Source: Fibrobacterota bacterium (GTDB lineage: Bacteria > Fibrobacterota > Fibrobacteria > UBA11236). From it: a stretch of DNA of 34,843 nucleotides. The stretch spans positions 1-34,843 of the forward strand of contig JAYUVP010000170.1 of the NCBI GenBank assembly GCA_043753995.1, read 5' to 3'. Position 1 is the first letter of the stretch. Every line of letters starts with the position of its first letter. The notes beneath the pieces were generated by a model. The model saw nothing but the letters and a program-made list of their open reading frames with translations. It was not told the origin of the DNA and searched no databases. Of this stretch, positions 342-27,862 are shown in pieces. Made by a program: the position numbers and the translations under genes.

Positions 342-1850
342 ATGCCAACCTATAGCTTTCCGGGCGTCTATATCGAAGAGATTCCCAGCGGCGTCAGGAC
401 TATTACGGGAGTCGCCACCTCGATCACGGCCTTTGTGGGCCGTACCTTGCGTGGGCCCGTCAACCTTCCCACCCCCGTTTTCAGCTTCGGCGAATTCGAA
501 CGTCGCTTCGGCGGTTTGTGGACGGAAAGTCCGTTAAGCCAAGCGGTGTATCAATACTTCGCCAATGGTGGGGGCCAAGCTCTGATTGTGCGCGTGCACA
601 ATACGGCCTTGACTGCGGGGGTGTCGCTGGACAGCGGCAATTTGCAGCTCTCGGCAGCGAATCCCGGCGCTTGGGGCACCAATCTTCGCGTCAGTGTCGA
701 CCTTGGCTCGCCGGCCTTGGCTGCTCCTTTATTCAATCTCACCGTGACCGATGTCGTCACCGGCGCGCGTGAAGTGCATCTCAACTTGAGCACCAGCCCG
801 GCGAGTTCGCGCTTTGTCACCCAGGTCCTAGCGCAAGACAGCCAATTGATCGTTGTTACGGCTGGCTCAACCGTGGCCGCCACGCGGCCTACGGTTACCG
901 CATCGCCTGTCGCTCTTACCGCAGCAGCCGCTGCCGATGGCGCAGCCGTCACAGCTGGCGAAGTTGTTAGCGGTGGTTCGCTAGAGGCTAATAAGGAAGG
1001 CCTATTCGCTCTGGAAAAGGCTGACCTCTTCAACTTGCTGGTGATACCGCCTTATTCGCCGAGCGACGATGTCGATGCGGCTGATTTGACCGCGGCCTAT
1101 ACCTATGTGAAAAAGCGCCGCGCGATTTTGCTCATCGACCCGCCTGCGGCCACCGATACCGTCAGCGAGGCGCAAACCTTCGTGGGCACCTTGACCCGCG
1201 ATGAGAACGCCGCGTTTTTCTTTCCGCGCATCTTAGCGCCCAATCCCCTGAAGGAAAACAAAATTGAAGCCTTCGCGCCTTCGGGCGCGGTGGCAGGCAT
1301 ACTCGCTCGCACCGACGCCACGCGCGGCGTGTGGAAGTCCGCAGCCGGAATCGACGCCGTCATCGTAGGCGCGGCCGGACTCGCCGCCAAACTCACCGAC
1401 GGTGAGAATGGCTTGCTCAATCCGCTCGGCATCAATGTGCTGCGCGACTTTCCCGTTTATGGCCGCGTGGTCTGGGGTTCGCGCACCTTGAAAGGCGCGG
1501 ATCAACTGGCTTCGGAGTGGAAATACCTGGCCGTGCGCCGCACCGCCCTCTTTCTCGAAGAAAGCCTTTATCGTGGTACGCAATGGGCCGTTTTCGAACC
1601 CAATGATGAACCGCTTTGGGCCCAGATTCGCCTCAATCTCGGCGCCTTCATGCAAACCCTTTTCCGCCAGGGAGCCTTTCAGGGCCGCTCGCCCAAGGAG
1701 GCCTATTTCGTGAAATGCGACGCGGAAACGACGACACAAAATGATATCAATCTCGGTATTGTGAACATTTTGGTTGGCTTCGCCCCGCTCAAGCCCGCCG
1801 AATTCGTGGTCATTAAACTGCAGCAAATCGCCGGACAGGTGCAGGCTTAA
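342..1850 (+). CDS. Contractile tail sheath protein (Afp2/3/4-like)
   Basis: N-terminal PGVYIEE...ITAFVG motif; C-terminal GIN-LR-FP--G-VVWG-RTL, WKYL-VRR, WAVFEPN and VG-APLKPAEFV motifs typical of sheath proteins. Start moved from 336 to 342 on RBS spacing. Confidence 0.97.
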   Translation: MPTYSFPGVYIEEIPSGVRTITGVATSITAFVGRTLRGPVNLPTPVFSFGEFERRFGGLWTESPLSQAVYQYFANGGGQALIVRVHNTALTAGVSLDSGNLQLSAANPGAWGTNLRVSVDLGSPALAAPLFNLTVTDVVTGAREVHLNLSTSPASSRFVTQVLAQDSQLIVVTAGSTVAATRPTVTASPVALTAAAAADGAAVTAGEVVSGGSLEANKEGLFALEKADLFNLLVIPPYSPSDDVDAADLTAAYTYVKKRRAILLIDPPAATDTVSEAQTFVGTLTRDENAAFFFPRILAPNPLKENKIEAFAPSGAVAGILARTDATRGVWKSAAGIDAVIVGAAGLAAKLTDGENGLLNPLGINVLRDFPVYGRVVWGSRTLKGADQLASEWKYLAVRRTALFLEESLYRGTQWAVFEPNDEPLWAQIRLNLGAFMQTLFRQGAFQGRSPKEAYFVKCDAETTTQNDINLGIVNILVGFAPLKPAEFVVIKLQQIAGQVQA

Positions 1851-1871
1851 TCGCCTGGAGGGACACAAATC

Positions 1872-2396
1872 ATGGCACAGTTTACCGTCAACGCCAATCG
1901 TTTCGACCCCTATAAGAATTTCAAGTTCCGCGTCAAGTGGGACGGCCGTTATGTCGCGGGAGTGAGTAAGGTCAGCGCGCTCAAGCGCACGACCGAGGTG
2001 GTGAAACACCGCGAGGGCGGCGATCCCAGCAGCTCACGCAAGTCACCGGGGCGCAGCGAATTCGAATCGATCACCTTGGAGCGCGGCGTCACCCATGACA
2101 CCGAATTCGAAAAATGGGCCAATAAGATCTGGAATTTCGGATCGGGCCTGGGACTCGAAACCTCACTCAAGGACTTCCGCAAAGACCTCATCATTGAGGT
2201 CTATAATGAAGCCGGCCAATTGGTCATCGCCTACAAGGTATTTCGCTGCTGGGTTTCGGAATTCCAAAGTCTGCCCGATCTCGACGCCAATGCCAATGCC
2301 ATCGCCATTCAGCATATCAAGCTGGAAAACGAAGGCTGGGAACGCGATTACGAAGTCACCGAGCCCGCTGAGCCTAGCTTCAGCGAGCCCGCTTGA
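1872..2396 (+). CDS. Tail tube protein (T4 gp19 / Afp1/5-like)
   Basis: DPYKNFKFRVKWDG, HREGG, K-PG----ITLERG, F--W and L-A----IAI--I-L-NEG motifs; directly follows the sheath; GGAGGG RBS upstream. Confidence 0.96.
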   Translation: MAQFTVNANRFDPYKNFKFRVKWDGRYVAGVSKVSALKRTTEVVKHREGGDPSSSRKSPGRSEFESITLERGVTHDTEFEKWANKIWNFGSGLGLETSLKDFRKDLIIEVYNEAGQLVIAYKVFRCWVSEFQSLPDLDANANAIAIQHIKLENEGWERDYEVTEPAEPSFSEPA

Positions 2397-2437
2397 GGCA
2401 AGTCCGGACCGACCACCGTGGGCTAGGTGAATCCGAC

Positions 2438-3181
2438 ATGCTTCCGCGCGCGCTTTCGGCTGGCGATTTGCTCGTGGCCTACGAGCAGCTGTCTTTGCAA
2501 CCCGCCTGGCGCTGGCCGGCGGTATTGCTCACTCTAGGCTATGCCCGGCTCTCCTTCGAGGACGCCGTCACCTTGCCGTTACCCTGGCGCGAAGGCCTCT
2601 TGCTGCGCTTGCGCCTCGCCAATTTCGGCGGGGAAATGCGCGGTCATAGCCGATGCAAGTCTTGCGGCAGCGACAATGAAATTAGCCTAGCCTGCGAGGA
2701 TTTATTGACGGCCTTTCCTGAGGCCGATGCCTTGCCCGCCAAGGATGGCGTGGTCGCAGCCTTGCCTTCGGGTGTCGAGGCGCGTATGCAGGGGCTTTCT
2801 TCGATCGATTTGGCAGAAGCCGCTCGTCTGCCCGCCGAAGCCGCCGCCTTGCTTTTGCAAGAGCGCAGCATGAAATCGCTGGCCAAGGATGGCGAACCGC
2901 GAAGCTGGCAAGAACTCGACGCCGCCGATCAAGCAGCGCTTTCCCAAGCTCTGGAAAACTTGAGCGGTGGCCTGCGCCTCGAAGTCATTTGCCCCGCTTG
3001 TAGCGGCAAAGAAAATCGCGAAATCGATTTGGGGATGTGGCTGGCCCAAGAAGTGAGCCGCGCCGCCCAAGGTCTTATAGGCGAAGTCGATACGCTGGCG
3101 CGCGCTTATGGCTGGAGCGAAAACGATATTTTGAATCTCTCGCCCGCGCGTCGACGGCTTTACTTGGAGAGGGTGGCATGA
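2438..3181 (+). CDS. T4 baseplate-hub-assembly / tail-chaperone-like protein
   Basis: Two CxxC pairs (CKSC, CPAC) and a C-terminal EV--LA-AYGWSE--IL-L---RR--YL motif; follows the tube gene. ATG 2438 (AGGTG upstream) preferred over TTG 2393. Confidence 0.75.
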   Translation: MLPRALSAGDLLVAYEQLSLQPAWRWPAVLLTLGYARLSFEDAVTLPLPWREGLLLRLRLANFGGEMRGHSRCKSCGSDNEISLACEDLLTAFPEADALPAKDGVVAALPSGVEARMQGLSSIDLAEAARLPAEAAALLLQERSMKSLAKDGEPRSWQELDAADQAALSQALENLSGGLRLEVICPACSGKENREIDLGMWLAQEVSRAAQGLIGEVDTLARAYGWSENDILNLSPARRRLYLERVA

Positions 3182-4287
3182 GCGACGCGGCAATGATAGC
3201 GGGCGGCGCGTCCGAGCCCTCCCAAGCATCGGAAACGGTTTCGCCGATGGCTCCTACCTTGGGGCTGTTCCGGCAATTCGCCGACCGAGCCCGTGGGGTA
3301 ACTCCCCTGTTAACCCCGGTTTTGCCTTCGCGCTTCGAATCGGCCTTACCTTCGGCACGCAATGAAAATGAACTGGGCTTCGGTGAGGCGATGGCGAATT
3401 CGCCCGAGGCTCGGGAAGGAATGCTTCGGGGCGAGGACGCGGAAACGCGTCTGCGGCCACAGCCACGGCCACCGCAACAATTCCAACAAGATCTTACGAC
3501 TCGGTTTGTACGGCCTAGCCTAAAACCAGAGGAAATCGCTGGCGAAGCGCACGGCGAAGGCTCCAACGAGAAGCCGTATGCTTTCCATTCAACGCCAGGC
3601 TTGTCGGCGCGCTTTGCTGCCCAAAGCTCCGAAGCCATGCTGCCGAAGTGGAATATCAGGCAGTCCAGCGAGACGGCGAGCGAAACGGATGCGAAGGTGA
3701 TTTCGCCGAGCGAAGGATCGTCAACTTGGTCGGGAGAAAGACTTGCAGGCCCAAGTTTGGGCAAGACAGCCGCTCCTGCCCTGGCGAAACCCGAGGCGAC
3801 TCCTTGGGGGCTAAGGCCACTGGCGAGTGACCGTAACTCACAAGGGACTCCTACCTCCGCTGATACGCCGGAGCAAAAGCAAATTGAAAATCATGTGAGC
3901 CAAGCGCTGAAGCCTGCATCCTTTTCCGCGCACCCCGCTGCCGCGCCTTGGGCGCAAACCCGGATGTCGCCGGAAACGGCACCGAAACCCGGAAACAACA
4001 ACAAGTCAACCGCATTGGCAGGGACAAGCCCGGACACCACCATGGCGCAGCGCCTAGGCTTGACACCTCCGGCGAGGCAAGGTGGCGATGGCCCCTCGTC
4101 CGGAAGCCAGGGTAACATACAAGTGACGCCAGCCGCAACTGCACCACAAGTGCATATACGCATAGGCCGCGTGGATTTTCGCGGCGTGCCAAGCGCCGCG
4201 CCCGCGCGCCCGGCACCCGCCAAGCCGGCAGGACCGGCCATGGATCTCGAAGGCTATTTGCGCAGCCTCGACAGGAGGACGCGATGA
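3178..4287 (+). CDS. eCIS-associated low-complexity (Pro/Ala/Ser-rich) protein
   Basis: ATGA overlaps with both neighbours. Mostly disordered-looking, with a C-terminal VHIRIGRVDFR...LEGYLR motif that I recognise from genes upstream of Pvc16 in such loci. Confidence 0.7.
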   Translation: MSDAAMIAGGASEPSQASETVSPMAPTLGLFRQFADRARGVTPLLTPVLPSRFESALPSARNENELGFGEAMANSPEAREGMLRGEDAETRLRPQPRPPQQFQQDLTTRFVRPSLKPEEIAGEAHGEGSNEKPYAFHSTPGLSARFAAQSSEAMLPKWNIRQSSETASETDAKVISPSEGSSTWSGERLAGPSLGKTAAPALAKPEATPWGLRPLASDRNSQGTPTSADTPEQKQIENHVSQALKPASFSAHPAAAPWAQTRMSPETAPKPGNNNKSTALAGTSPDTTMAQRLGLTPPARQGGDGPSSGSQGNIQVTPAATAPQVHIRIGRVDFRGVPSAAPARPAPAKPAGPAMDLEGYLRSLDRRTR

Positions 4288-5483
4288 GCAATCAATTGGC
4301 CGTGGCCACCGTAACCGCGGCGTTATCCCAGCATTTGGGCGAGGCCCTCTCGGGAGTGCCCGGCGCCAGCGTGACCTTCGGGAGACCCGACAAGACGCAG
4401 CCGGATAAGGGCATTAACCTTTATCTCTATGAAATCGATCATCGCGGCTCGCTTCGCTTCACGGATTTGCCCACCCGTAATTCACGGGGCGATCTCGTCG
4501 AAAAGCCGCGCGCGCCCTTAGAGCTGCGCTATTTGCTCACTTTTTATGGCGAAGAAATTTCCTTGGAGCCGCAGCGGCTTTTGGGCGCCGCCGTGCGGGT
4601 GATGAATGGCAAGCCCGTGCTCACGCGGGCCGAGATTCGCGCCACCATTGCCAATCCCAGCTTCAGTCCCTTTCTCGGCGAAAGCGATTTGGCCGAGCAA
4701 ATCGACTTGGTCAAATTCACGCCGCTCAGCATGTCCATGGAAGAGACGAGCAAGTTATGGTCGACCTTGCTCAAGGCGGATCACGTTTTGTCCTTGGCCT
4801 ATGCGGCCGGTGTCGTCTTCATTGACGGCGAAGGATCGCCGAGCACGGCCTTACCCGTGCGCTTGCCGCAAATCCAAGTCCTGCCCTGGCAGCCTCCGCG
4901 CCTGGAAACCGTGACGCCGCAGATTTTTTCCTTCTCCGTGGGAATGTCTTTGGCGCTTGAAGGTCATGGCCTTTTATTGCCCGGCACAACCGTGAAGGCA
5001 GGTAGCGTAGACGTGACTCCCGACTTGGGATCCACGCCCGCGCGCCTGAACTTGACGGTAACACCGCTGTGGCGGGCCGGTGTGCAAACCGCGCAGGTCA
5101 TACAACCCATCGAGTTTCCCGCCTTGCCCGGACCACCTGTGGCGCATAAGGGTTTCGAGTCGAATACCGTTCCCTTCATTTTGCAGCCCACCGTGACCGG
5201 ACTCAGCTTCGATGTCGGGGATCCCCTGGGGGCCAGCGTGGTCGTCGCCTGCGATCCTGCCGTGGACGCCGGACAAAGGGCTGAGCTTTTACTCAATGAA
5301 AAAATCGTGGGACCCAATCCGCGCGCTTTCCGCCTCGCAGCGCGAACGCGACCGGGCACAACAAGCACTATTCGTTTCGACGCGACCGGCTTACCACCCG
5401 GATTGTTTCTGGGGCGGCTGCGCATTGACGGCGCCGAAAGCCGCCTCACCGGATCGCTCGCCGAAGAAGTGACCTTGCCCTAA
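4284..5483 (+). CDS. Pvc16/Afp16 (DUF4255) tail terminator with C-terminal Ig/IPT-like extension
   Basis: MSN-LAVA-VT-AL, INLYLY, L-LRYLLT-YG, QRLLG-A and LSMEE-SKLWS motifs; beta-rich C-terminal half. Confidence 0.9.
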   Translation: MSNQLAVATVTAALSQHLGEALSGVPGASVTFGRPDKTQPDKGINLYLYEIDHRGSLRFTDLPTRNSRGDLVEKPRAPLELRYLLTFYGEEISLEPQRLLGAAVRVMNGKPVLTRAEIRATIANPSFSPFLGESDLAEQIDLVKFTPLSMSMEETSKLWSTLLKADHVLSLAYAAGVVFIDGEGSPSTALPVRLPQIQVLPWQPPRLETVTPQIFSFSVGMSLALEGHGLLLPGTTVKAGSVDVTPDLGSTPARLNLTVTPLWRAGVQTAQVIQPIEFPALPGPPVAHKGFESNTVPFILQPTVTGLSFDVGDPLGASVVVACDPAVDAGQRAELLLNEKIVGPNPRAFRLAARTRPGTTSTIRFDATGLPPGLFLGRLRIDGAESRLTGSLAEEVTLP

Positions 5484-5499
5484 GGAAAATCCAGCCCAC

Positions 5500-7506
5500 A
5501 TGAGACATTTAGGATCACCCGATTATATCACGTCCAATCAAGCTTGCCTCATGGCAGGCTTTCAGCGTTTGCTTGCCGAAGCGCGCGTGAAAGTCGGAGC
5601 CGCGCCCGCCGAAGAAGCCGAGGAAGCGCGCGGCGTGGAAAAAGGCTGCGAAGCCATGCTCGGCAGCCCAACGACCTTGGAACAAATCGCGCAGCGTTTC
5701 GCTCTCACCGGTTTCGAACGCGATATATTGCTGCTCCTTGCGGGACTCGAACTGGACACGCCTTTCGCCACGTCCCTGCATCAATTGATGACCGACCGCA
5801 CCCAAGGTCAAGTGAATGCCTTCACTTTCGCCTCGGCCCTGGCGCTTTTGCTCGAACCCCATTGGAGCGCACTGGGACCAGAGTCACCGCTGCGTTACTG
5901 GCGCTTGATCGACATGTCGGCGGGATATTCCCTGGTGAATGCCCCCCTGCGCCTGGAAGAGTCGGTCTTGCATGCCTTATGCGGCGCACCGCATCTCGAC
6001 GATCGCTTGCTTGACTTGGTGACGCCCTTGGCCACCACGGTGCCCCAATCGGTTTCGCTGGCCAATGCCGCCGAGCAATTGTCTGAGGCCTTGAGTTCTC
6101 CCGTGCATCCAGGGAATCCTCCCACCGTGCTTTTGCTCGGTCCACCCAGCGAGGACAAGCGGGCTGTGGCGGGAGCCGCTGCCACGCGTTGTGGCTTGGC
6201 CCGCACCGTGGCGTTGCCGCTCGAATTGCTGCCCGCCGCCGCGGGAGATTTGGAGTCCCTGGTACGTTTATGGGGCCGCGAAGCCGCCCTGCATGATTTA
6301 TTGCTCTATATCGAAACCTCGGAAGACGGTCTGGAAGCCGCGCGCCTCGTCACCTTGCAGCGCTTCGCAGCACGCAACCGTGCCCCGCTTGCCATTGGGG
6401 TGACTGACAAGATACGTCTCCCGGGAGTGACACCCCGTAACGTGACCGTTTCCTCCCCGAGCCCGGAAGAGCAGCGCGCCCTCTGGGAGCGTACCTTGGG
6501 GCCGGCGGCTTATTTGCTCAATGGTCACCTCGATCAATTGGTTTTGCAATTCCCCCTGCCAGCGGCGGCCATCACCGCCACGGCTGCCGAGGTAAGTGAA
6601 AGTCTCGCCAGCCTGGATCCGAATGTCACGCCCATAGACGGGGATGTGGCCTTTCATTTCGCCTGGCAAGCTTGTCGCGGACGGGGTCGCCAGCGCATTG
6701 CCGAATTAGCCCGACCCATCGTGCCACGCGTGACCTGGGACGATTTGGTTTTGCCCGAATTGCCCCTCCTCACCTTGCGACAAATCGCCGCCGAAGTGCG
6801 CCAACGCCATCGTGTGTATGGCGAATGGGGCTTTGGTGGAAGCGGCGCGCGCGGCCTTGGCGTGTCGGCTCTTTTCGCTGGCCCCAGTGGCACCGGCAAA
6901 ACCCTGGCCGCCGAAGTGCTTGCCTCGGATTTGGGTCTCGATCTCTATCAAATTGATCTCTCCACCGTGGTCAGCAAATATATCGGCGAAACCGAAAAGA
7001 ACTTGCGCAGGCTCTTCGACGCGGCTGAGGAAAGCGGTGCCATTCTGCTTTTCGACGAGGCGGACGCCTTATTCGGCAAGCGTAGCGAAGTCAAGGACAG
7101 CCACGATCGCTATGCGAATATCGAAGTCGGCTATTTGCTACAGCGCATGGAGGCCTATCGCGGTCTCGCCATCCTGACCACCAATTTGAAGAACAATCTC
7201 GACGCGGCCTTTTTGCGGCGCTTACGGCATATCGTGCATTTCCCCTTCCCAGACGAAAAACAGCGCGCCGAAATTTGGAAGCGCGTTTTCCCCGAAGCCA
7301 CGCCGCGCGAAAATGTGATGCCCGCCAAGCTGGCCAAGCTCATGGTGCCCGGCGGCCACATACGCAATATCGCTTTGACCGCCTCCTTCTTGGCCGCGGA
7401 TGAAAGCGGCACGGTGGGCATGGAGCATTTATTGCGCGCCGCGCGCGCCGAATTCGCCAAGTTGGAAAAACCCATGAACGAAACCGAGGTGGCGGGATGG
7501 GTATGA
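5500..7506 (+). CDS. AAA+ ATPase (Afp15/Pvc15-like)
   Basis: Walker A GPSGTGKT, SKYIGETEKNL, Walker B LLFDEAD, DSHDRYAN-EV-YLLQRME and AF-RR arginine finger; degenerate first AAA module. Confidence 0.96.
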   Translation: MRHLGSPDYITSNQACLMAGFQRLLAEARVKVGAAPAEEAEEARGVEKGCEAMLGSPTTLEQIAQRFALTGFERDILLLLAGLELDTPFATSLHQLMTDRTQGQVNAFTFASALALLLEPHWSALGPESPLRYWRLIDMSAGYSLVNAPLRLEESVLHALCGAPHLDDRLLDLVTPLATTVPQSVSLANAAEQLSEALSSPVHPGNPPTVLLLGPPSEDKRAVAGAAATRCGLARTVALPLELLPAAAGDLESLVRLWGREAALHDLLLYIETSEDGLEAARLVTLQRFAARNRAPLAIGVTDKIRLPGVTPRNVTVSSPSPEEQRALWERTLGPAAYLLNGHLDQLVLQFPLPAAAITATAAEVSESLASLDPNVTPIDGDVAFHFAWQACRGRGRQRIAELARPIVPRVTWDDLVLPELPLLTLRQIAAEVRQRHRVYGEWGFGGSGARGLGVSALFAGPSGTGKTLAAEVLASDLGLDLYQIDLSTVVSKYIGETEKNLRRLFDAAEESGAILLFDEADALFGKRSEVKDSHDRYANIEVGYLLQRMEAYRGLAILTTNLKNNLDAAFLRRLRHIVHFPFPDEKQRAEIWKRVFPEATPRENVMPAKLAKLMVPGGHIRNIALTASFLAADESGTVGMEHLLRAARAEFAKLEKPMNETEVAGWV

Positions 7507-8147
7507 GGGAGCGTGGACCGACTTGCGGCGGCGCAGCGGCGCCCTGTTTCGCGGGCGCTACGGTGACACGCAAGTCACGTCCTCTGGGGGTGACTGGGCC
7601 GCAGGCAAGCCTAGGCCCCCGTTCAGGAAAACCCCCGGGGTATGATCTGCGCGGTATTTCGGTGTTGCATACCGAAAAGCGACTGGGCGAATACAAATGC
7701 GACTTGAATCAAGGTGGCAAATCGTCCATGACTATCAGCGACACCTCCTGCCTTAAATCCTGCACTGAGCGGCATGAGCAAAAGCACCAGGCGGACGTTT
7801 CGCCATGTTGCCAAGCCGCAGGAGCGGCCTACAAGGCGGCGGAAGGCGACGGCCCCAAGCAAGAACAAATCATCACCGATTTTACAAACTGGTCGACTAA
7901 AAATAAGCCTTACTTCGAATGCCGGGCTTATCAGGAATCGGTGACTTGCGCCGAAGAAAAGATCGCGGAACTGAAAGCGAAAGATCTTAAGAAGTTCACC
8001 CAATCCGACAGCGATTGCCTGAGACTCGCGGTGGAGACCAGCGGGAAATGGACCAAGTCGCGCAACAACTTTTGTGGTGGCACGGCCGACGAGCCTAGCA
8101 AGGTGACCGTCCAATTCACACCCTGCCCCTGGACACCCGCGCCATGA
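7503..8147 (+). CDS. Cys-rich HExxH protein, candidate eCIS cargo (putative zincin-like domain)
   Basis: ATGA overlaps with the ATPase stop and with the next gene; 12 Cys; HEQKH followed by ECRAY. The product call is inference. Confidence 0.65.
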   Translation: MRERGPTCGGAAAPCFAGATVTRKSRPLGVTGPQASLGPRSGKPPGYDLRGISVLHTEKRLGEYKCDLNQGGKSSMTISDTSCLKSCTERHEQKHQADVSPCCQAAGAAYKAAEGDGPKQEQIITDFTNWSTKNKPYFECRAYQESVTCAEEKIAELKAKDLKKFTQSDSDCLRLAVETSGKWTKSRNNFCGGTADEPSKVTVQFTPCPWTPAP

Positions 8148-8653
8148 ATATCCCGGGCCTGCATATCGATTTCGAGGAGCTGGTTTTTCACGGCTTCTCG
8201 CCGGAGCAGGCCCATGCCGTCGCCGCGCATTTGCAACGGGAAATGGAGCAATTGGCGCAGCATCACTTCGAAGCGAATCCGGGATGGGCTCAAGGGGAAT
8301 TGCCTCTGACTCTGGATTTGCCTGCCTTGACTATGCCGCCCATGGCCTTGAATACCCAAGCGCCCGCTTTGGAAACAGCACGACATTTGGCCAAGGCATT
8401 GTGGACCGCTATTTCTCCCAGCTTGGCGCCCGCCGCTCCTGCCGCTCCGGTTGCGCGCAGTCAGGAAGCCTTGGCGACGCGTTTAGGATACCGTAACCTT
8501 CATGTTACAAATGCCAAGCCCACTAACGAAGCGGTGGGCGCTCCGAGCCTTGCCCCTAGGCCAGCCTTTTTCGGAGCCAAGGTCGGAGCCCAAGCCACGG
8601 GCTCCGAGGCGAAGTCGGCTCCGTCCTCCATTGCGAACGGGGGGCTGGCATGA
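8144..8653 (+). CDS. Small conserved eCIS-associated hypothetical protein
   Basis: N-terminal LHIDFEELVFHGF...L-REMEQL motif that I recognise from small genes between the ATPase and DUF4157 genes; coupled on both sides. Confidence 0.7.
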   Translation: MNIPGLHIDFEELVFHGFSPEQAHAVAAHLQREMEQLAQHHFEANPGWAQGELPLTLDLPALTMPPMALNTQAPALETARHLAKALWTAISPSLAPAAPAAPVARSQEALATRLGYRNLHVTNAKPTNEAVGAPSLAPRPAFFGAKVGAQATGSEAKSAPSSIANGGLA

Positions 8654-12190: not shown

Positions 12191-12299
12191 GATTGGCGCA
12201 TCCCAAATCTTTTTCCGCCCCAGCTAAGACCGCCGGTTACCCATTCCGCCGGAATGGGATCGAATACAAACTATCGCAGGGAATCCCCTAGAGGCCCCC

Positions 12300-20868: not shown

Positions 20869-23213
20869 TCACGGATTATAAAATCGACGCGGACTCATTG
20901 GCCGCGGCTCTACCCGCCGTGATGCGCGAACGTGATCTCACGGTCGCCAATCCCAAGGGAGCCTTGCAAGCCTTGCTCGGAGCCTTGGCTCGCGAGCTCG
21001 ACGTGGTGCGCACCGACATCGACGCTTTGTATGATGGCGCCTTCATCGAGACTTGCGCGCCTTGGCTCGTGCCCTATATCGGCGAATTACTCGGCGTGAA
21101 AGGCCTGCATTCCGTGAGCGCGGCGACATTGAGCCCGCGCGCCGTGGTGGCCAATACCTTGGCTTATCGTAGGCGTAAAGGTACTGCGACCGTCATCGAG
21201 CAGCTCGCCCGCGATCTCACCGGCTGGGACACCCGCGTGGTGGAGTTTTTCCAGCTCCTGGCCACCACCCAGCATATCAACCACGTACGCCCAGGCAAAG
21301 GCGGCACGGTTAACCTGCGTGATACGGCGGCCTTGGAAAGTATTCAAGGCCCTTTCGATACGGCGGCGCATACTCTTGAAGTGCGATCCTCTTCTGTGGG
21401 TGGACGCTATCATCCCCAAACTCTGGGGATTTTTCTCCATCGCCTGCAAGCCTATACCGTGAATGGTGGCGACGCGGCGGCCATCCCTGCCGCTGGACCC
21501 GGGCGCTTCACCTTTTCGCCGCTGGGCTGCGATTTGCCGCTTTTCTTCGAGTCCCTTCCAGAAACCTCCATCGAGCATTTGGCCGAGCCCGTCAATGTCA
21601 GCGCACCACTGAGTCGCCGACCCCTGTGGGACGAACTCGAAGGCTTGCGCGCCGCTCTCGCCTTGGGACAAAATCCCAAGCCCCTGTTGTGGTTCGACGT
21701 GGCCCGTCCGGCCTTTATTGTGATTGCCGATGACGCGGTGATTTCTCCCGTCGCCATTTTGATATGCGATCTCACGGATTGGCATTTGCCCGCCGATACC
21801 AAGGTCTATCCCGGCTTTTCCGGCCCGGTGAATATGCCGATTCGCTGTGCCGTCGACCCTGTGCTGGGCCGCATCACCTTTCCTGCCGGGGTTTTTCCCA
21901 GTAGCGTACAAGTGACCTATGCCTATGGCTTTCCCGGCGATATAGGCGGTGGCCCTTATTTACGCCGCCGCCGCTCGGGCGAATTGGGCGCAGCGGCCCG
22001 CCTTATCGCCAATGCCCTGCCCTCGGCGGCAGCCACGGCGGCTTGCGCAGGGGAAAGCGGTTTATCCGGTTGCGACGAAGCAGGCGCTTGCGCCGGCGAT
22101 CCGTTTTTGATGTGGCCCGACACCTTGGCTTTTCCGAGGGCCGAAGGCGAACTCTATCGCGTTTTCGCCGACCAAGTCAGCGGCCCGCATCCCGACGCCG
22201 AAACCCTTACCGATGCCATAGCCCTCTGGCTTGCCGACGGCAGGCCTCGCGCGGTGATACAGATCGAGGACAGCCGCTCCTATGTCGAGGACGTGGTGCT
22301 CGACCTGGGCGATGCCGAACTCATACTGCAGGCGCAAGAAGGTGACAAGCCCATCCTCTTGGGTAACTTAGAGGTTACGGGTGGAAGCGGTGCAGGCAAA
22401 TTGCTGATCGACGGTTTACTGCTCGCCGGGGCGCTTAACGCCACGGGCGACACGGATACCTTGGCCTTGCGCCATTGCACCCTAGTGCCCGGCCTCACTC
22501 TGGACGCCGACGGCCTCTCCCTGCAAGCCGACCAGCCCAGCTTGGACGTGCTTCACGACACGGTGCGGCATAATAACGAGCATTTGACCTTGCACATGCA
22601 TGCCTGCATTTCGGGTCCGTTGCGTTTGCCATCGGCCATGGTCTCGGCCCGCATTTCCGATACCGTGATTCAAGCGCCCGATAATGTTTTACCGGCTTAT
22701 GCTGCCGATGCGGCAGGCGGCGCTGGTGCCCGGGCCTGTTTGATTCGCTGCACGGTGCTGGGGCATTTGCATGCCATCGCCGTGGACTTGGTGTCGGATA
22801 CGATTTTCACTGAGGCCGCCGTCGCCGATCGATTGCAAGAAGGCTGCACGCGCTTCAGCTATTTGCCCGAGGACTCGCAATTGCCGCGGCGTCATCGCTG
22901 CCAGCCCGATACGGCCATAGCCAAAGCCTGGGAAGATTTGGGCGAAAGCGCCACCCAGGCAGCTAAGGATGCCGCAGCCGATTTGGCCCGCAGCCGCATG
23001 CCTCCGCAATTCACGGCTTTGCGGCTCAATGCTCCCGCCTTCGCCCAATTGGCCGAGGGTGCGGCGATGGAATTGAAGACTCAAGCTTCCAATGAAAGCG
23101 AGATTGGGGCTTGGAATGCCCTGATGCAGCCGCAGCGCGAAGCGAATTTGCGTTCGGCCCTCGATGAATACCTACGCCTGGGACTCACCGCCACGGTGAT
23201 CCACGCCACCTGA
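20865..23213 (+). CDS. Phage tail / baseplate wedge protein (P2 gpI-like N-terminus)
   Basis: LPA--R-RD, I--LYD--FIETC--W-VPYIG-L-G, VANT-AYRRRKGT and VDP-LGR motifs; beta-helix-like C-terminal region. Confidence 0.85.
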   Translation: MITDYKIDADSLAAALPAVMRERDLTVANPKGALQALLGALARELDVVRTDIDALYDGAFIETCAPWLVPYIGELLGVKGLHSVSAATLSPRAVVANTLAYRRRKGTATVIEQLARDLTGWDTRVVEFFQLLATTQHINHVRPGKGGTVNLRDTAALESIQGPFDTAAHTLEVRSSSVGGRYHPQTLGIFLHRLQAYTVNGGDAAAIPAAGPGRFTFSPLGCDLPLFFESLPETSIEHLAEPVNVSAPLSRRPLWDELEGLRAALALGQNPKPLLWFDVARPAFIVIADDAVISPVAILICDLTDWHLPADTKVYPGFSGPVNMPIRCAVDPVLGRITFPAGVFPSSVQVTYAYGFPGDIGGGPYLRRRRSGELGAAARLIANALPSAAATAACAGESGLSGCDEAGACAGDPFLMWPDTLAFPRAEGELYRVFADQVSGPHPDAETLTDAIALWLADGRPRAVIQIEDSRSYVEDVVLDLGDAELILQAQEGDKPILLGNLEVTGGSGAGKLLIDGLLLAGALNATGDTDTLALRHCTLVPGLTLDADGLSLQADQPSLDVLHDTVRHNNEHLTLHMHACISGPLRLPSAMVSARISDTVIQAPDNVLPAYAADAAGGAGARACLIRCTVLGHLHAIAVDLVSDTIFTEAAVADRLQEGCTRFSYLPEDSQLPRRHRCQPDTAIAKAWEDLGESATQAAKDAAADLARSRMPPQFTALRLNAPAFAQLAEGAAMELKTQASNESEIGAWNALMQPQREANLRSALDEYLRLGLTATVIHAT

Positions 23214-23230
23214 TTGTCCAAGGAGATGCC

Positions 23231-26200
23231 ATGAGAGGCGATTTCACCCGCAGCACATTCGACGCCAACAAGCGTTATACCCAAGTCCGCCAACAGCAAG
23301 GACGGGTGCAAGTCGACGCCGACTTCAATGAGCAAAGCGATTTGCAATTGAGTCGCGAGCGAACCCTGGCGACCGACATCATCGGCAAGAGCGGAGCGCC
23401 CAAGGCCGAAGCCGGTTTCGGCCTCGCCCTGCTAGGATCGGGCGAAGACCTTGCCTTGAGCCCCGGCCGCTACTATGTCAAGGGCCGGCAATGCTCCATT
23501 GAGGCGAGCAATGTGGCTGCGCAGGCCGTGGGTGTTTCCCTGATTCAAGTCGAAAGCCTTAAGCCCGACGGGCGGCCTCTCGCCGCCGGCCAATGGATAG
23601 GGCTTTCGGGTGCGGGTGGGGTCACTCATGTGGGACGTATCGTATCAGTGACTGCGGCCACGCGCCGCGTGACCATTGCTCCGGCCCTCGCCGACGCCGC
23701 GCCATTCGCGCAGGCTACCCTGCGCAGGCTTACCACCTATGCCACCCAGCCGGGCCTGCCCAAGGCTCCCTTCGTCGACACCGAGTTGGAAAGCCTGATC
23801 TTGGCCGATGGACGCTATGCCGCCTATCTCGAAGTGTGGGAAAGAGCGGTCAGCCCTCTGGGTGATCTCGCCTTGCGCGAAGTGGCCCTGAACGGAGCCG
23901 ACACGGCGGTGCGCACGCAATTGATATGGCAAGTGCGCTTGCGCCCCGTAGCCGCCGACGCCCCGCCTCCCGCGGCGGTCACCGGCGATTGCTGCGCCAT
24001 CGACGGCGCATGCCCCGCGCTGGATTTTCCAGCACCGACGGGACGCTTACTTGCGCGGGCCCAGCCCGATGCGATCAGCGACGACCCCTGTATCTTAGGT
24101 GCTACGGGGGGCTACCGCCGCCTGGAGAATCAGTTGTATCGCGTCGAAATTCATCGTGGCAATGAAGGCGGCGGCAATGCCACCTTCAAGTGGTCGCGCG
24201 AGAATGCTTCGGTAGAAACGCGTTGGCTCGGCCAAAGCGGCAATGATATGCAAGTGTCTTCCACCGGTCGCGATGCCAATCTCGGCTTTCATGCTGGCGA
24301 CTGGGTGGAGCTCTTCGACGAAAGTACCGAACTCTTGAATTTACCGGGGACTCTGGTGCGCGTCGATTCCGTGAAGGAAGGTGTGATCACGATTTTGCCC
24401 GCTACCGCCGATGGCAATGTGAATCGCATCAATTTCCCCGTGAATCCACGCATTCGCCGCTGGGACATGGTGGGCACCGGCCTCGCGGGATTGGGCGAAC
24501 GCCTCATCGAAGTGCCGGCCAGCGACGACGGCTTCCTGACCTTGGAAAGCGGCGTGCAAATTCAATTCGAGACAGGCCGAACTTATCGCACCGGCGACTA
24601 TTGGATTCTCCCCGCCCGTACGGCCACGCGCGACATCGAATGGCCACGCGACGCCAGCAATCTTCCCCTGTGGCAAAACGCGCAGGGTATAGTGCGCGAG
24701 CAAGCCTTGCTCGGCACGGTGACCAAGCTCGGTGAAACCGTGACCTTACATGATTGCCGCGAGCTTTTCCCTGCACTCACGCAAATCTGCGCTTCGGATG
24801 TCTGCTATGACAGTGGCTGCGATTTGATCGCCACCAATGTTCAAGACGCCCTCGACGAACTTTGCCGCGCTCGCGACTTGCGTTGGCATAACAAGCACTT
24901 GCATGGGCATGGCGTGGTTTGCGGGCTGCAAGTGTTTTGCCCCGAGACCACGGACGAACGTCGGCGCAGCGTGCGTATCCTTTCCGGATATGCCCTCGAC
25001 TGCGAAGGCAATGATATCGTGCTCGAGCAAGAGGCGGTCTTTCCCCTGATCGAAAACGTGCTGGCGCGTGATGCCCAGGCGGCCGAAAACGATCGCTGGC
25101 TCGATGCCGAGGGACGCGGCGATGTTTGCCTCATCGTAAGGCGCGGTACCGAAGGCCAGCCAGCCTTTGAATTGCGGAATTATGATAAGAGCTCGCATAG
25201 CCTGAAATCGCGGCTCGACGACACCTTGCTATTGAAGTTTTACAAGGACTGCATTCAAGACGTCCTGCAGCAAATCAAGGATGAGTTGACCCCCGGTGCC
25301 GACGAAACCAATCATCCCGCCGGTCCGAAAACCCAGCTCACCTCCGCCTTGATCAATATCGCCGTGCAGGCCATCGATCCGGCCACGGGGCAATATGTTT
25401 TCGTCTCCCAGCGCGAGCACGATTTGCTATTGCGCTTTTACAATCGCCTCCGGGCCATTTTGCGGGACGAAACCTTTTGCGGCCTCTATGACGATGCCGC
25501 GCCTTTCCCCGCCTATCCCTTTCCCAACCTGGCCATCGACACGATCTTCGCCAAGAACCATCACCTGCGACTGCGCGCCAGGCCCGGCACGCGCGAGGTC
25601 TATTCCTTCGGACCCGGATTGCATCCCACTTCGCCTTCGTCCCTCGTCAATCGTTATGATGCTGAGCGCATGCGCCTCATCGAGCGCATCGACGTGAATT
25701 CCGGCGCGGTATTACCCTTCGACGCTCCTGAACCCAAGGCCTCGACCGGCCCCGTTCTCGATGTCGCCTTTTCTCCCGACGGCCGCCGCATTTATGTGGC
25801 GCTGACCACCCGTAACGGAGACGATACCCTGTTCCGCATGGGTACTTTCGGCCGCAATGGCGTCATCGCTTGGGGCGCCATCACCAACCTTTGCGGCGTA
25901 CGCATGGTGACCTTGGCCACCACGGCCGCCGACGCCGCCAATGTTTATGCCGTGGGCCAGAAAACCGTCACTACCAATAGCGTTTCAAAGCTGACGGGCA
26001 CCGGCCTCTATCGCATTCGTCCCGAGCAGCCCGATGCCGATCCCAAGGTCGCCGTAGCCTTCAACAGCGCCGGTCATTTGGTCATCGCCGCCGACGGCAC
26101 CGCCTTCATGACGGCCCAGACTTCGCCGACTACCGAGCCCAAGCGCTACAATCGCATTCGCGTTTTGACCTTGCCCTTGTCCGACAATTCCAATCCTCAA

Positions 26201-27862
26201 GACATCGATTTGGTCGATCCCGGTGAAGACGATATCGCCATCCTTCCCCAAGTCACGGGCGCGGGCCACAAGGTCTTTCATGTCGGCATCAGCGCCAATG
26301 GCAAGGAATTGGAGGCCTATGATTTTCCTCCACGTCGCGCCAATGTCGCCAGGCTCGCACCCTTGCCGAATACGCGCATTCGTCTCGCCACCTTGAATGC
26401 CCGGGGAACGGGCGTGCCGGGTCGCGTTTTCGTCAGCCTCGAAGACAGCTATACCGTGCACATGGCCACATTCACGCGTTCGGGCGTTGATTGGCAAAGC
26501 GAATATGCCTTGCCCACCCAAATCGCTCCGGTCGCCATGGCCAGCCATGACGGCGATGTCGAAACCTTATTCGTCCTGAATCAAGGCAGCAATACCCTGA
26601 CGGTCGCCAGCGGTAATACCTTACAGTCACGTTTCCGCTTCGACTTCGATGCCTTGCGCACCTATCGCGAGCAAGTCGTCAAGGCTTATATCGACTTGCT
26701 GGCCGGCTTCCTGCAATATTTAAAGGACTGCCTCTGCGAGCATTTTCTGGTCAATTGCCCCACTTGCGGCGAAGATGAAGTGATTGAGTTGGCATGCATT
26801 TCCATACGTAACTCGCGTGTTCACAAGATTTGCAATTTCTCCGGGCGAAAATACGTGAAGAGCTTTCCCGCCGTGGATTGGTGGATGTCCCTCGTGCCTA
26901 TATTGCCGGTGGCCCGTCACTACCTCGGAGAATTTTGCTGCATGCTTTTGCCCAATCTCTTCGGCAAGATCAAGACCACCGCCCCTGCCCGCGAGCCCAA
27001 TGCCTTCGGCAAGGCCAAGTATTCGGTGGCCGGGGCGCGCACGGCGACGAACGCGGGGCAAGCCCTCAATTTCAGTTCCATCGGCAATATATTGTCGAGC
27101 AAATTGAAGCTCTTCAATGGTGCGATCAAATCAAGCGGCGCATCGCAAACGGTGGACAATCTCAATCGCAGCGCCGAGATCGATGCCGCCGTCATCGATC
27201 AACCCGCCACCCGCGCCGTGACTTCGCTGGAAAAGCGCGGCCTCAAGGTGCGCGTCGCGTCCTTCAATTCGGCGCAAGCCTCCACTTCGCCCAATTTCTC
27301 CGCCATATTGCGTCAACCCAAGGCCAATGAAGAAGTGGTGCTGCATGAAAAGGACGGGCGCGTCGCCTATTATACCGTCGAAACCGTGGCTGCTCCCGCG
27401 AGCCCGGCGGCTGGAAGTAGCACCGGTGCTACTTCTGGAATATCCACTTTACCTGTCGTATCACAAGCCGACTTTCAATCCCTGAAAGACTCCTTGGCCG
27501 CGCGTGAAACGGAGATCGCCACCTTGCGAGTCAGTCTGCAGGCTCAGACCACGCAATTGCAAAGCCTCACCGCGCTTTCGGCCCGCATGCAAACCCTGGA
27601 AGGCGCTCTATTGCAAATACAGCCCCAAGGCGGCCTTTCGCTCAATCTCAATCGAGATACCGGAGGTGCAGTGACAGGGATAACAACCAATCCGCAAGGG
27701 ACGTTGAATTTGCTTCGCGACGCCGCCCCTGCCCCTGCCGCGCCTAACCCCGCGCCCGCGAAGGCACCCGCTGCCAAATCCACGACAGCAAAAACCACCA
27801 AGACGACGGCAGCGAAGGCGACCAAAACCACCTCAACCAAATCCAAGGGAGGCAAGGGATAG
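23231..27862 (+). CDS. DUF6519-domain modular tail-fibre/appendage-like protein
   Basis: MRGDF-R-TF, QQGRVQ-DAD-NE, GRYYV-G, YLEVWER, GY--LENQLYRVEIH, FKWSREN-S, RRWD, LE-GVQI-F----YRTGDYW--PART motifs; AGGAG RBS. Confidence 0.9.
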   Translation: MRGDFTRSTFDANKRYTQVRQQQGRVQVDADFNEQSDLQLSRERTLATDIIGKSGAPKAEAGFGLALLGSGEDLALSPGRYYVKGRQCSIEASNVAAQAVGVSLIQVESLKPDGRPLAAGQWIGLSGAGGVTHVGRIVSVTAATRRVTIAPALADAAPFAQATLRRLTTYATQPGLPKAPFVDTELESLILADGRYAAYLEVWERAVSPLGDLALREVALNGADTAVRTQLIWQVRLRPVAADAPPPAAVTGDCCAIDGACPALDFPAPTGRLLARAQPDAISDDPCILGATGGYRRLENQLYRVEIHRGNEGGGNATFKWSRENASVETRWLGQSGNDMQVSSTGRDANLGFHAGDWVELFDESTELLNLPGTLVRVDSVKEGVITILPATADGNVNRINFPVNPRIRRWDMVGTGLAGLGERLIEVPASDDGFLTLESGVQIQFETGRTYRTGDYWILPARTATRDIEWPRDASNLPLWQNAQGIVREQALLGTVTKLGETVTLHDCRELFPALTQICASDVCYDSGCDLIATNVQDALDELCRARDLRWHNKHLHGHGVVCGLQVFCPETTDERRRSVRILSGYALDCEGNDIVLEQEAVFPLIENVLARDAQAAENDRWLDAEGRGDVCLIVRRGTEGQPAFELRNYDKSSHSLKSRLDDTLLLKFYKDCIQDVLQQIKDELTPGADETNHPAGPKTQLTSALINIAVQAIDPATGQYVFVSQREHDLLLRFYNRLRAILRDETFCGLYDDAAPFPAYPFPNLAIDTIFAKNHHLRLRARPGTREVYSFGPGLHPTSPSSLVNRYDAERMRLIERIDVNSGAVLPFDAPEPKASTGPVLDVAFSPDGRRIYVALTTRNGDDTLFRMGTFGRNGVIAWGAITNLCGVRMVTLATTAADAANVYAVGQKTVTTNSVSKLTGTGLYRIRPEQPDADPKVAVAFNSAGHLVIAADGTAFMTAQTSPTTEPKRYNRIRVLTLPLSDNSNPQDIDLVDPGEDDIAILPQVTGAGHKVFHVGISANGKELEAYDFPPRRANVARLAPLPNTRIRLATLNARGTGVPGRVFVSLEDSYTVHMATFTRSGVDWQSEYALPTQIAPVAMASHDGDVETLFVLNQGSNTLTVASGNTLQSRFRFDFDALRTYREQVVKAYIDLLAGFLQYLKDCLCEHFLVNCPTCGEDEVIELACISIRNSRVHKICNFSGRKYVKSFPAVDWWMSLVPILPVARHYLGEFCCMLLPNLFGKIKTTAPAREPNAFGKAKYSVAGARTATNAGQALNFSSIGNILSSKLKLFNGAIKSSGASQTVDNLNRSAEIDAAVIDQPATRAVTSLEKRGLKVRVASFNSAQASTSPNFSAILRQPKANEEVVLHEKDGRVAYYTVETVAAPASPAAGSSTGATSGISTLPVVSQADFQSLKDSLAARETEIATLRVSLQAQTTQLQSLTALSARMQTLEGALLQIQPQGGLSLNLNRDTGGAVTGITTNPQGTLNLLRDAAPAPAAPNPAPAKAPAAKSTTAKTTKTTAAKATKTTSTKSKGGKG

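Follow-up and report, generated by a model that had tools for sequence, protein, structure and literature searches.

The window analyzed here is an entire contig (C170; JAYUVP010000170.1), 34,843 bases long, from a Fibrobacterota metagenome-assembled genome (MAG) of 5.2 Mb in 356 contigs that is 97% complete. Its plus strand carries, at 342-27862, an operon for a contractile injection system (CIS). On gene content and order, this locus is very probably a complete CIS of extracellular CIS (eCIS) lineage II, with a DUF6519 (eBAP5) fiber and a Tail_P2_I adaptor, in the gene order of the Streptomyces davawensis group. The machine type is already catalogued; it is not a new kind of machine.

A single operon with the predicted parts of a CIS

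We called gene families with Pfam and NCBIfam on the 28 open reading frames (ORFs) of the window. The CIS operon takes up 20 of them, in a single coupled run with every frame open:

342-1850, plus strand: sheath, the Cis2/Afp2-4 equivalent (PF04984 and PF17482)
1872-2396, plus strand: single inner tube of the gp19/Afp1 type (PF06841, E 1e-45; TIGR02241)
2393-3181, plus strand: zinc-ribbon protein of the T4_baseplate family, gp51-like (PF12322, E 3e-4)
3178-4287, plus strand: Pro/Ala/Ser-rich protein with a conserved C-terminal motif, IxIGRV[DE][FV]R ... L[ED]xYL
4284-5483, plus strand: cap or tail terminator (Pvc16_N, Afp16/Cis16; PF14065, E 3e-34)
5500-7506, plus strand: AAA+ ATPase with an N-terminal winged-helix domain, Afp15/Cis15 (PF00004, E 6e-26; PF22977, E 5e-11)
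7728-8147, plus strand: small Cys-rich ORF in the variable cargo slot, an open frame with a likely start after an AGGTGG-like site
8144-8653, plus strand: small ORF in the variable cargo slot, with a 4-base overlap with each neighbor
8650-10896, plus strand: cargo candidate 1 (DUF4157/eCIS_core), 748 amino acids (PF13699, E 4e-28)
10904-12190, plus strand: cargo candidate 2 (DUF4157/eCIS_core), 428 amino acids (PF13699, E 5e-31)
12300-12959, plus strand: tube initiator (CIS_tube), the N-terminal part of Afp7/Cis7 (PF19266, E 8e-7)
12971-13288, plus strand: small LysM-like or P2 gpX-like protein, 105 amino acids, with weak sequence matches
13285-14400, plus strand: baseplate hub, gp27-like or P2 gpD-like, the N-terminal half of Afp8/VgrG
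14397-14903, plus strand: spike with gp5 OB-fold, P2 gpV-like, the C-terminal half of Afp8/VgrG (PF04717, E 7e-22)
14903-15226, plus strand: PAAR-like spike tip, DUF4280-like, Afp10/Cis10 (PF14107, E 4e-3, below cut-off)
15243-15599, plus strand: gp25-like sheath initiator, Afp9/Cis9 (PF04965, E 2e-19)
15596-18058, plus strand: baseplate-J paralogue 1 (J1; Cis11a/Afp11), 820 amino acids (TIGR02243, E 5e-78; PF04865)
18058-20868, plus strand: baseplate-J paralogue 2 (J2; Cis11b), 936 amino acids (TIGR02243, E 2e-57; PF04865)
20865-23213, plus strand: Tail_P2_I wedge or adaptor protein at the Afp12 position, 782 amino acids (PF09684, 22.8 bits against a cut-off of 20.6; PF10076, weak)
23231-27862, plus strand: DUF6519 (eBAP5) fiber or receptor-binding protein, 1543 amino acids (PF20129, E 1e-53)

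Neighboring genes mostly overlap by 1 or 4 bases or stand 7 to 21 bases apart; the two longer gaps measure 109 bases (12191-12299) and about 220 bases (7507-7727). The ORF lengths agree with those of homologues in loci of a Chloroflexia MAG, a Steroidobacteraceae MAG, and Mycobacterium sp. JS623. Judged by homology and synteny, all structural parts of a CIS are present and intact. A first-pass annotation had reported an intact CIS with no evident frameshifts, one sheath and one canonical tube gene, two large baseplate-J genes, a separate hub and spike, and a giant DUF6519 gene, and the family assignments above bear out each of these calls. They add the zinc-ribbon and Pro-rich proteins, the cap, the ATPase, the two small ORFs, two DUF4157 genes, the PAAR-like tip, gp25, and the Tail_P2_I protein.

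Assignment to eCIS lineage II

As described by Chen et al. 2019 (PMC6899500), the eCIS core set consists of Afp1/5, Afp2/3/4, Afp7, Afp8, Afp9, Afp11, Afp15, and Afp16. The locus represents it in full (PF06841, PF04984/PF17482, PF19266, PF04717, a VgrG-like hub, PF04965, PF04865/TIGR02243 twice, PF00004, and PF14065). In the same account, afp11 is present twice in lineage II subtypes IIa and IIc; afp8 is split into gp27 and gp5 ORFs in IIa, IIb, and IIc; afp10 is missing from IIb only; afp14 is generally absent from the lineage; and IId loci have one afp11 and a contiguous afp8. The window has IIa/IIc-like content, with two TIGR02243 genes, a separate hub and spike, and a PAAR-like ORF. Searches of its ORFs with Pfam, NCBIfam, and PHROG found no tape-measure (Afp14-like) family.

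The fiber gene narrows the assignment. Five domains that anchor eCIS tail fibers to the baseplate have been catalogued; DUF6519 is the one named eBAP5, present in 658 genes, and in eBAP3/5 systems Tail_P2_I adaptors are described as replacing Afp12 (PMC12923769). The window agrees with this catalogue: an N-terminal DUF6519 anchor lies in a gene downstream of the Tail_P2_I and baseplate-J genes, and there is no Afp12 homologue. Because DUF6519 is a tail-fiber anchor, we read the giant gene as the fiber gene; the first-pass annotation, in contrasting the locus with systems that carry an Afp13 fiber, had implied that such a part is lacking, and this does not hold.

The closest described kind is the CIS of S. 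davawensis, from which Nagakubo et al. 2024 (PMC11126660) isolated particles and reported effects on sporulation and on the release of extracellular DNA (eDNA). As described there, the cluster has a single Afp1/5, two Afp11, hypothetical ORFs after the Afp7 and Afp8 homologues, and probable tail-fiber proteins, one with DUF6519; related clusters come from Proteobacteria, Acidobacteriota, Chloroflexota, Myxococcota, Thermodesulfobacteriota, and a Mycobacterium plasmid. The window has the same synteny, with a single tube, two Afp11, extra ORFs after Afp7 and Afp8, and the DUF6519 gene last. As in S. davawensis, DUF4157 effector genes lie just upstream of the baseplate genes, and there is a spike tip, whose gene takes the position of 'Tip' BN159_7582. 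The published group spans diderm and monoderm phyla, and the host of the window is a diderm MAG.

The two systems part over Tme. In the published description, this giant DUF4157 effector co-purifies with the spike and tube initiator and has membrane helices, a tape-measure-like region, and an EndA-like nuclease (PMC11126660). We found no tme-like gene in the window, that is, no largest ORF of the cluster with an N-terminal DUF4157 directly upstream of the baseplate genes, and the DUF4157 proteins that are present have no hydrophobic, nuclease, or tape-measure matches. The largest CIS ORF here is the fiber, and the Chloroflexia and Steroidobacteraceae loci likewise have no giant DUF4157 gene. 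The fiber also differs, being one 1543-amino-acid protein with a beta-propeller and no gene for a separate peptidoglycan-binding partner after it. Because the tme-like hallmark is lacking, we file the locus under the wider eBAP5/lineage II kind and describe it as a Tme-less relative of the S. davawensis group.

Other characterized systems stand further off. The S. coelicolor CIS (8bky, 9gtp; PMC10066040, PMC12237407) is the closest solved structure by sequence and shares the single sheath and the lack of an Afp14-type gene. As described, it belongs to lineage IId and has two tube homologues and no fiber gene or fiber density, whereas the window has one tube and a fiber. The Halogeometricum borinquense CIS (IIa; PMC11566945) resembles the window in its two cis11 genes, separate LysM, hub, and spike genes, PAAR, gp25, and DUF4157 toxins, but is described with two sub-clusters, two tube genes, a conserved six-helix membrane anchor, and no DUF6519 fiber. 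Serratia Afp and Photorhabdus PVC, of lineage Ia, share all eight core components. The first-pass annotation was right that the window differs from them. In full, there is one sheath gene here against three, Afp7 and Afp8 are each split, Afp11 has two paralogues, Tail_P2_I stands where they have Afp12 and a DUF6519 fiber where they have the adenovirus-like Afp13, and there is no Afp14-type tape measure. The same annotation had gone on to call the architecture probably uncharacterized. This part is not supported, as the traits are published (PMC6899500, PMC12923769) and the S. davawensis CIS has been studied experimentally (PMC11126660).

Homologous loci and sheath phylogeny

A pattern scan with J1 over one genome per species returned only two loci, in the Chloroflexia MAG (44% identity) and the Steroidobacteraceae MAG (31%), which we then extended and compared by tblastn. 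The gene order from the sheath to DUF6519 is identical in both. A colinear match or positional equivalent exists for 18 of the 20 genes, the exceptions being the two small cargo-slot ORFs. Identity to the Chloroflexia locus reaches 81% for the tube, 58% for the sheath and the PAAR-like tip, 52% for the tube initiator, 49% for the ATPase, 44% for J1, and 36% over the full length of the Tail_P2_I protein; synteny with the Steroidobacteraceae locus is looser. The DUF4157 genes vary, with three in the Chloroflexia slot and none in the Steroidobacteraceae slot, the latter locus having one after its fiber. Neither locus has a counterpart of the small cargo-slot ORFs or of a patatin gene downstream of the operon. 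Genes for a P-type ATPase, an MFS transporter, and a BTAD regulator flank the Chloroflexia locus, and one for a LuxR-type regulator lies upstream of the Steroidobacteraceae locus; no head, terminase, or type VI secretion system (T6SS) membrane genes were found there or beside the JS623 locus described below. The Steroidobacteraceae MAG also encodes a second CIS-type sheath on another contig (G042:C40:36980-38473, L013), 40% identical to that of the window; this MAG therefore has two such systems, or one that is split.

Searching the PLSDB plasmids with J1 by tblastn gave matches in 43 records. The match to pMYCSM01 of Mycobacterium sp. JS623 has 37% identity over 99% of the query, and that to the Halogeometricum IIa plasmid (pHBOR03) has 29% identity over only 32% of the length. 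The JS623 locus runs from sheath and tube through two hypotheticals, DUF4255, ATPase, a small ORF, DUF4157, and a 1819-amino-acid DUF4157 protein to four ORFs, protein V, an ORF, gp25, J, two large ORFs, and a 1394-amino-acid 'kelch repeat' protein. The window is colinear with it gene for gene, with identities of 41% for the full-length sheath, 71% for the tube, 45% for the ATPase, 41% for the hub, 49% for the spike, and 37% for J1. Because organism label and architecture agree, we infer that this plasmid (NC_019957.1) is the 'Mycobacterium sp.' cluster of Supplementary Fig. 2 of PMC11126660.

The window sheath matched 135 records of the plasmid collection. Identity is 45-57% for Rhizobium, Novosphingobium, Ensifer, Ciceribacter, S. 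europaeiscabiei, Cupriavidus, and JS623 (41% for JS623 over the full length), 33-36% for typical Streptomyces plasmid homologues, and 31-32% for Deinococcus. In a maximum likelihood tree of 12 sheath rows, S. davawensis not among them, a branch with 100/100 support separates Halogeometricum (IIa), S. clavuligerus, and Deinococcus grandis (IId) from the rest, which puts the H. borinquense and window sheaths on opposite sides of this split. The window groups with JS623, Rhizobium, Ensifer, Novosphingobium, and a Streptomyces plasmid. The D. grandis CIS is assigned to lineage IId in the published account (PMC12998442). We considered the cytoplasmic CIS of Roseiflexus and Deinococcota described there as the closest relative and rejected it, given the lineage IId assignment and the 31-32% identity of the Deinococcus sheaths.

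In the lineage of the host, 7 of 40 relatives have a J1 homologue, the best (41%) from another family; across the phylum, 5 of 200 other sampled genomes have one at E 1e-20 or better. Because the system is patchy in the host lineage and has closer relatives in other phyla, its distribution points to acquisition by horizontal transfer.

Needle and baseplate

The central needle is encoded in pieces. The best solved match of the hub is the gp27-like part of VgrG 9rce_F (residues 61-344, E 1e-5). It also matches the phrog_52 tail protein and positions 281-340 of NF033848, and the spike matches positions 370-538 of the same model. Because the two genes join in an ATGA overlap (14397-14400) that is kept in other loci, the hub/spike split is native and not a frame break.

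The tube initiator and a LysM gene had also been annotated as separate genes. The initiator stands, while the LysM assignment of the ORF at 12971-13288 is weaker: Pfam found no LysM in it, among solved structures a profile of three homologues comes closest to the LysM end of Anabaena tCIS Cis7 (7b5h_AK, 177-220), at a nonsignificant E of 0.21, and the Chloroflexia homologue matches Phage_tail_X at E 0.032. Both its sequence and its place right after the tube initiator are kept in all three compared loci. These similarities weakly suggest the C-terminal part of Afp7/Cis7 as a gene of its own.

J1 has its best solved match in S. coelicolor Cis11 (9gtp_1K, E 8e-11). The ATG of J2 at 18058 overlaps the TAA of J1, and the two genes are the only PF04865 matches in the genome. 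The Tail_P2_I protein, the only wedge gene at the Afp12 position in the locus, has no sequence match among solved structures. In S. coelicolor the wedge is described as two Cis11 and one Cis12, as in pyocin R2 (PMC12237407). Because two diverged Cis11 proteins and one Tail_P2_I protein mirror this composition, a heterotrimeric J1-J2-Tail_P2_I wedge may be predicted for the window.

Sheath, tube, and a candidate tape measure

Over its full length the sheath matches S. coelicolor Cis2 (8bky, E 4e-74), and it matches Halogeometricum Cis2 at E 7e-72; the Afp and Pvc sheaths match in the C-terminal part only (about 180-235 residues, E 1e-18 to 6e-39). An in-frame ATG also occurs at 336, and a GGAGG at 331-335 favors the start at 342. 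This gene is the one PF04984 match in the genome and hence the sole sheath of its type. Sheaths of the group range from 504 amino acids, the window sheath being the shortest seen, up to 768; the variation lies in an insertion between the N-terminal and the conserved C-terminal parts (Chloroflexia MAG L017:8953-11259, L043, L044).

The order tube, zinc-ribbon protein, Pro-rich protein, cap is the same in four of four loci. The zinc-ribbon protein has two CxxC pairs and homologues in all three compared loci; against the PF12322 cut-off of 24.5 bits, the Chloroflexia homologue scores above it (36.3) and the Steroidobacteraceae homologue just below (24.0). It is probably an assembly factor that occupies the position of the phage tail chaperone. 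In myophages the tape measure sits after the tube and chaperone genes, as in the P2 gene order. Because the Pro-rich protein at 3178-4287 likewise follows the tube and the chaperone-position gene, it is a candidate tape-measure or tube-lumen protein. Its C-terminal motif is present in the aligned window, Chloroflexia, and Steroidobacteraceae proteins and in the JS623 equivalent, and searches of Pfam, PHROG, and solved structures gave no match to the protein.

The DUF6519 fiber

The fiber gene begins 17 bases past the Tail_P2_I gene. PF20129 matches in three stretches within about residues 1-545, which form the eBAP5 anchor. A helical region follows, then a seven-bladed beta-propeller (about 760-1130), a conserved Cys-rich module, a small beta domain, a long coiled coil, and a disordered Lys/Thr/Ala-rich tail. 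A model of residues 560-1543 has a predicted local distance difference test score (pLDDT) of 75.7, with the propeller mostly above 90. It gave at least 500 beta-propeller matches at E 1e-3 or better, the best being of the WD40 type, with a target-normalized template modeling (TM) score of about 0.6. A solved-structure search by sequence gave no match to the fiber, and the NCBIfam CIS13 model touches it weakly over 52 residues (E 1e-5, far below cut-off). A complex prediction for the Tail_P2_I protein with fiber residues 1-200 scored 0.00 against a mark of 0.32, a run without controls that speaks neither for nor against their binding.

Residues 600-1300 are shared with 110 other proteins, nearly all with PF20129 and 1000-1800 amino acids long, so this fiber type is common and not unique. 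They come from MAGs labeled Chloroflexia, Actinomycetota, Clostridia, Verrucomicrobiae, Acidobacteriota, Myxococcales, and others, and the nearest is 78% identical. The eBAP5 catalogue (PMC12923769) describes fibers with macroglobulin-like shafts and beta-helix or lectin ends and a correlation with Actinomycetota. Compared with that description, the window fiber differs in its beta-propeller, Cys-rich module, coiled coil, and basic tail, and the bacterium differs in having an outer-membrane porin gene nearby.

Candidate cargo within and beyond the locus

DUF4157 is tied to eCIS toxins in published work (PMC8213781). Both in-locus DUF4157 proteins begin with a low-complexity N terminus, and neither has hydrophobic segments. 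The N-terminal domain alone matches the compared loci, and the tails are near-orphan, which agrees with the cargo set of its own that the first-pass annotation had proposed. In cargo candidate 1, a DUF4157 domain with HExxH is followed by a long tail containing a weak OmpA-like peptidoglycan-binding stretch (E 1e-3, below cut-off). This tail has only two homologues (67% and 59%; Atlas score, 0.86).

The tail of cargo candidate 2 carries a second HExxH. HMMER found 19 homologues of it among 1.84 billion representatives, and a word-indexed search found one partial homologue. In this tail family, H148, E149, and H152 of the second HExxH are invariant, and 13 of the 18 alignment rows scanned have eCIS_core. 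The model of the tail has a pLDDT of 86.6. Foldseek against the PDB returned nothing at E 1e-3 or better (best TM about 0.2, CorA), and VIA-align over 48,161 chains gave a best Z of 6.9 for generic long helices. The modeled tail thus has no fold match, which does not in itself establish a new fold. DUF922, an Atlas lead for this tail (score 0.89-0.91), was rejected, as Pfam did not support it even at E up to 5.

The two small ORFs at 7728-8147 and 8144-8653 have no homologue in the three compared loci and no family in Pfam or PHROG. For the Cys-rich ORF, the ATG at 7728 is the likely start. The gap ahead of it, from the ATPase stop (7507-7727), is G+C rich and the longest of the operon. An internal promoter or other regulatory element may lie within it, or the ORF may have an earlier start, at 7497.

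The genome has six DUF4157 genes, two in the locus and four on other contigs:

C53:3721-5409, minus strand: DUF4157/eCIS_core protein, 562 amino acids
C355:6882-8351, plus strand: DUF4157/eCIS_core protein, 489 amino acids
C98:75425-77134, plus strand: DUF4157/eCIS_core protein, 569 amino acids
C249:43011-45035, plus strand: DUF4157/eCIS_core protein, 674 amino acids

Each of these distal proteins has a low-complexity N terminus, and their tails differ, one being OmpA-like and one having a second HExxH; in all six proteins, 75-125 low-complexity residues precede the HExxH core. Because the genome has six DUF4157 genes, a single such sheath, and only two baseplate-J genes, the payload set probably reaches beyond the locus, and the four distal genes are probably orphan cargo of the single CIS. 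OmpA-like domains occur also in one Chloroflexia DUF4157 protein as well as in the distal one, and such tails hint at a cell-wall target.

For AlgoCIS, the disordered N terminus of the cargo is reported as the loading signal, and an AAA+ protein is reported to load the tube (bioRxiv 10.64898/2026.05.27.728243). The AAA+ ATPase at 5500-7506 is probably a cargo loader. All six DUF4157 proteins share with the AlgoCIS cargo Cgo1 and Cgo2 the layout of an N-terminal low-complexity region, DUF4157, and a variable C-terminal domain. They differ in that the C-terminal domains of the window proteins are unrelated and nearly orphan.

Operon limits and downstream genes

The contig begins 335 bases ahead of the sheath gene, and its ends have no k-mers in common with other contigs of the genome. 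Compared with shuffles, both halves of the window are poorer in promoter-like sites; for terminator-like sites this holds in the first half, and the second has about as many as the shuffles. Neither scan makes the operon boundary readable. A tRNA search of the window found none.

The gene after the fiber, at 27900-30551 on the plus strand, encodes a membrane-anchored patatin-like lipase of 883 amino acids, in which at least eight hydrophobic segments precede a patatin-like domain bearing GGGxR, GxSxG (GVSGG), and DGG motifs. Of 40 relatives, 3 have a homologue (40-44%); a baseplate-J homologue is absent from two of these genomes, and the remaining one has the CIS and the patatin-like gene on separate contigs. 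Because these homologues are unlinked to CIS genes, 27862 is the right end of the operon, and we do not count the patatin-like protein among the CIS parts, whether as cargo, as lysis factor, or as membrane anchor. In the JS623 plasmid locus the fiber region is followed by a phospholipase D-like gene, which may be coincidence.

Further downstream, 30552-32130 has a G+C content of 0.40-0.48 against about 0.59 elsewhere. This stretch, with two family-less ORFs of 132 amino acids and an oppositely oriented DUF2867 gene, may represent a small insertion of its own. On the minus strand, 32133-34535 carries a row of DUF4956, VTC domain, and phosphate-selective porin O/P genes, in which frames of 334 and 345 amino acids overlap by about 240 bases, one start probably being later than listed. 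A PorY-like histidine kinase end also lies downstream of the CIS in the window.

Mode of action

From solved relatives, the parts would fit together as follows. The hub, spike, and PAAR-like tip would form the central needle, which the tube initiator and the LysM-like protein would adapt to the single tube protein. The baseplate would consist of gp25 and wedges, each of one J1, one J2, and one Tail_P2_I protein. Sheath and tube would polymerize up to the Pvc16-type cap, to a length that may be set by the Pro-rich protein, and the ATPase would load DUF4157 proteins into the tube by their low-complexity N termini, as in AlgoCIS. The fiber would hang on the Tail_P2_I protein and bind a surface through its beta-propeller, and contraction would drive needle and cargo into that surface.

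We lean toward release of the particle from the producer, because the fiber is large and conserved and no membrane anchor is conserved. The same machine could instead act in the producer, as a cytoplasmic or envelope-attached CIS that fires into its own envelope or that of a touching neighbor, on the models of the S. coelicolor CIS (stress-induced cell death), the S. davawensis CIS (envelope effector, eDNA release), and the T6SS-like CIS of haloarchaea. We consider this a serious possibility, though a somewhat improbable one. The best solved sheath relatives argue for it, S. coelicolor Cis2 being from a cytoplasmic and Halogeometricum Cis2 from a membrane-bound system. In the S. davawensis account, the effector localizes to the cell envelope and the DUF6519 protein has a peptidoglycan-binding partner that attaches to the mycelium of the producer itself (PMC11126660); crown- and eBAP-bearing systems are described as not necessarily extracellular (PMC12923769); and two of the six DUF4157 proteins have OmpA-like peptidoglycan-binding stretches. 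But a propeller fiber of 1543 amino acids, from a family of at least 110 proteins across many phyla, is what target recognition would lead one to expect. The in-locus DUF4157 proteins lack a hydrophobic segment, and core proteins show only a few weak, single segments that do not resemble an anchor. The polytopic membrane protein encoded by the next gene, at 27900-30551, is unlinked to CIS in relatives, and comparison of the four loci revealed no conserved anchor gene of the CisA or Hbor_38620 type.

Two other machines share many of these parts. A remnant prophage tail or R-type tailocin, killing by depolarization without protein cargo, would explain why the modules follow an order like that of P2 and R-pyocins (V-W-J-I-fiber; sheath, tube, chaperone-like, tape-measure-like) and why gpD-like, gpV-like, and gpX-like proteins are separate. 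The Pvc16_N cap, the Afp15-type AAA+ ATPase, and DUF4157 are eCIS marks that tailocins and phages do not have, and neither the 28 window ORFs nor the flanks of the Chloroflexia and JS623 loci yielded a capsid or head, terminase, holin, or lysin family, which makes this reading very improbable. A divergent T6SS, with which the locus has sheath, tube, gp25, VgrG-like, and PAAR-like parts in common, is hardly credible. The genome does encode a canonical TssC/VipB sheath (PF05943, E 1e-131), its only VipB/TssC match, but on another contig (C278:12615-14102, minus strand), as a separate system. The window has baseplate-J, cap, and Afp15-type ATPase genes, which canonical T6SS is described as lacking (PMC6899500), and no TssJLM-like genes were seen in the window or the syntenic loci, where no separate search for the TssJ, TssL, and TssM families was made.

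Several points weigh against the assignment to lineage II and the S. davawensis gene order, or against a released particle. The closest solved or imaged relatives by sheath, the cytoplasmic S. coelicolor CIS and the membrane-bound Halogeometricum CIS, are not free particles. The hallmark of the group, a giant tme-like DUF4157 protein with membrane helices and nuclease, is absent here. Membership in the S. davawensis group goes through the JS623 locus as a proxy, which we infer to be the published cluster. The sheath tree has weak inner forks and long branches for its two Steroidobacteraceae rows. Gene order is the argument for a tape-measure role of 3178-4287, and analogy is the argument for the J1, J2, and Tail_P2_I wedge. 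DNA upstream of base 1 is outside the contig, and regulators or further parts there would be invisible.

A bolder picture can be drawn, which we regard as unlikely in its entirety. The window, Chloroflexia, and Steroidobacteraceae loci would form a Tme-less branch with DUF6519 fibers, in which the Pro-rich protein at 3178-4287 sets the length and is the 'missing' tape measure of lineage II, whose systems are said to lack one (PMC6899500, PMC12237407). The six DUF4157 payloads, including OmpA-like peptidoglycan binders and an undescribed HExxH family of unmatched fold, would be aimed at the bacterial cell wall, and the particle would be released by a diderm that keeps its T6SS.

Implications

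The locus does not overturn the current understanding of these machines. It adds an intact, diderm-hosted example to a CIS group with one functional study and an unsettled mode of action, for which we found no solved structure. Culturable soil bacteria with close homologous loci, namely, Ensifer adhaerens, Rhizobium leguminosarum, and Novosphingobium resinovorum (sheaths 51-57% identical), could serve as stand-ins. Three features deserve expert attention. The cargo tails belong to almost orphan families; with its two baseplate-J paralogues, the locus lends itself to testing the 2:1 wedge seen in S. coelicolor; and the lack of Tme, an effector proposed to be tape-measure related, reopens the question of how length is set in these systems.

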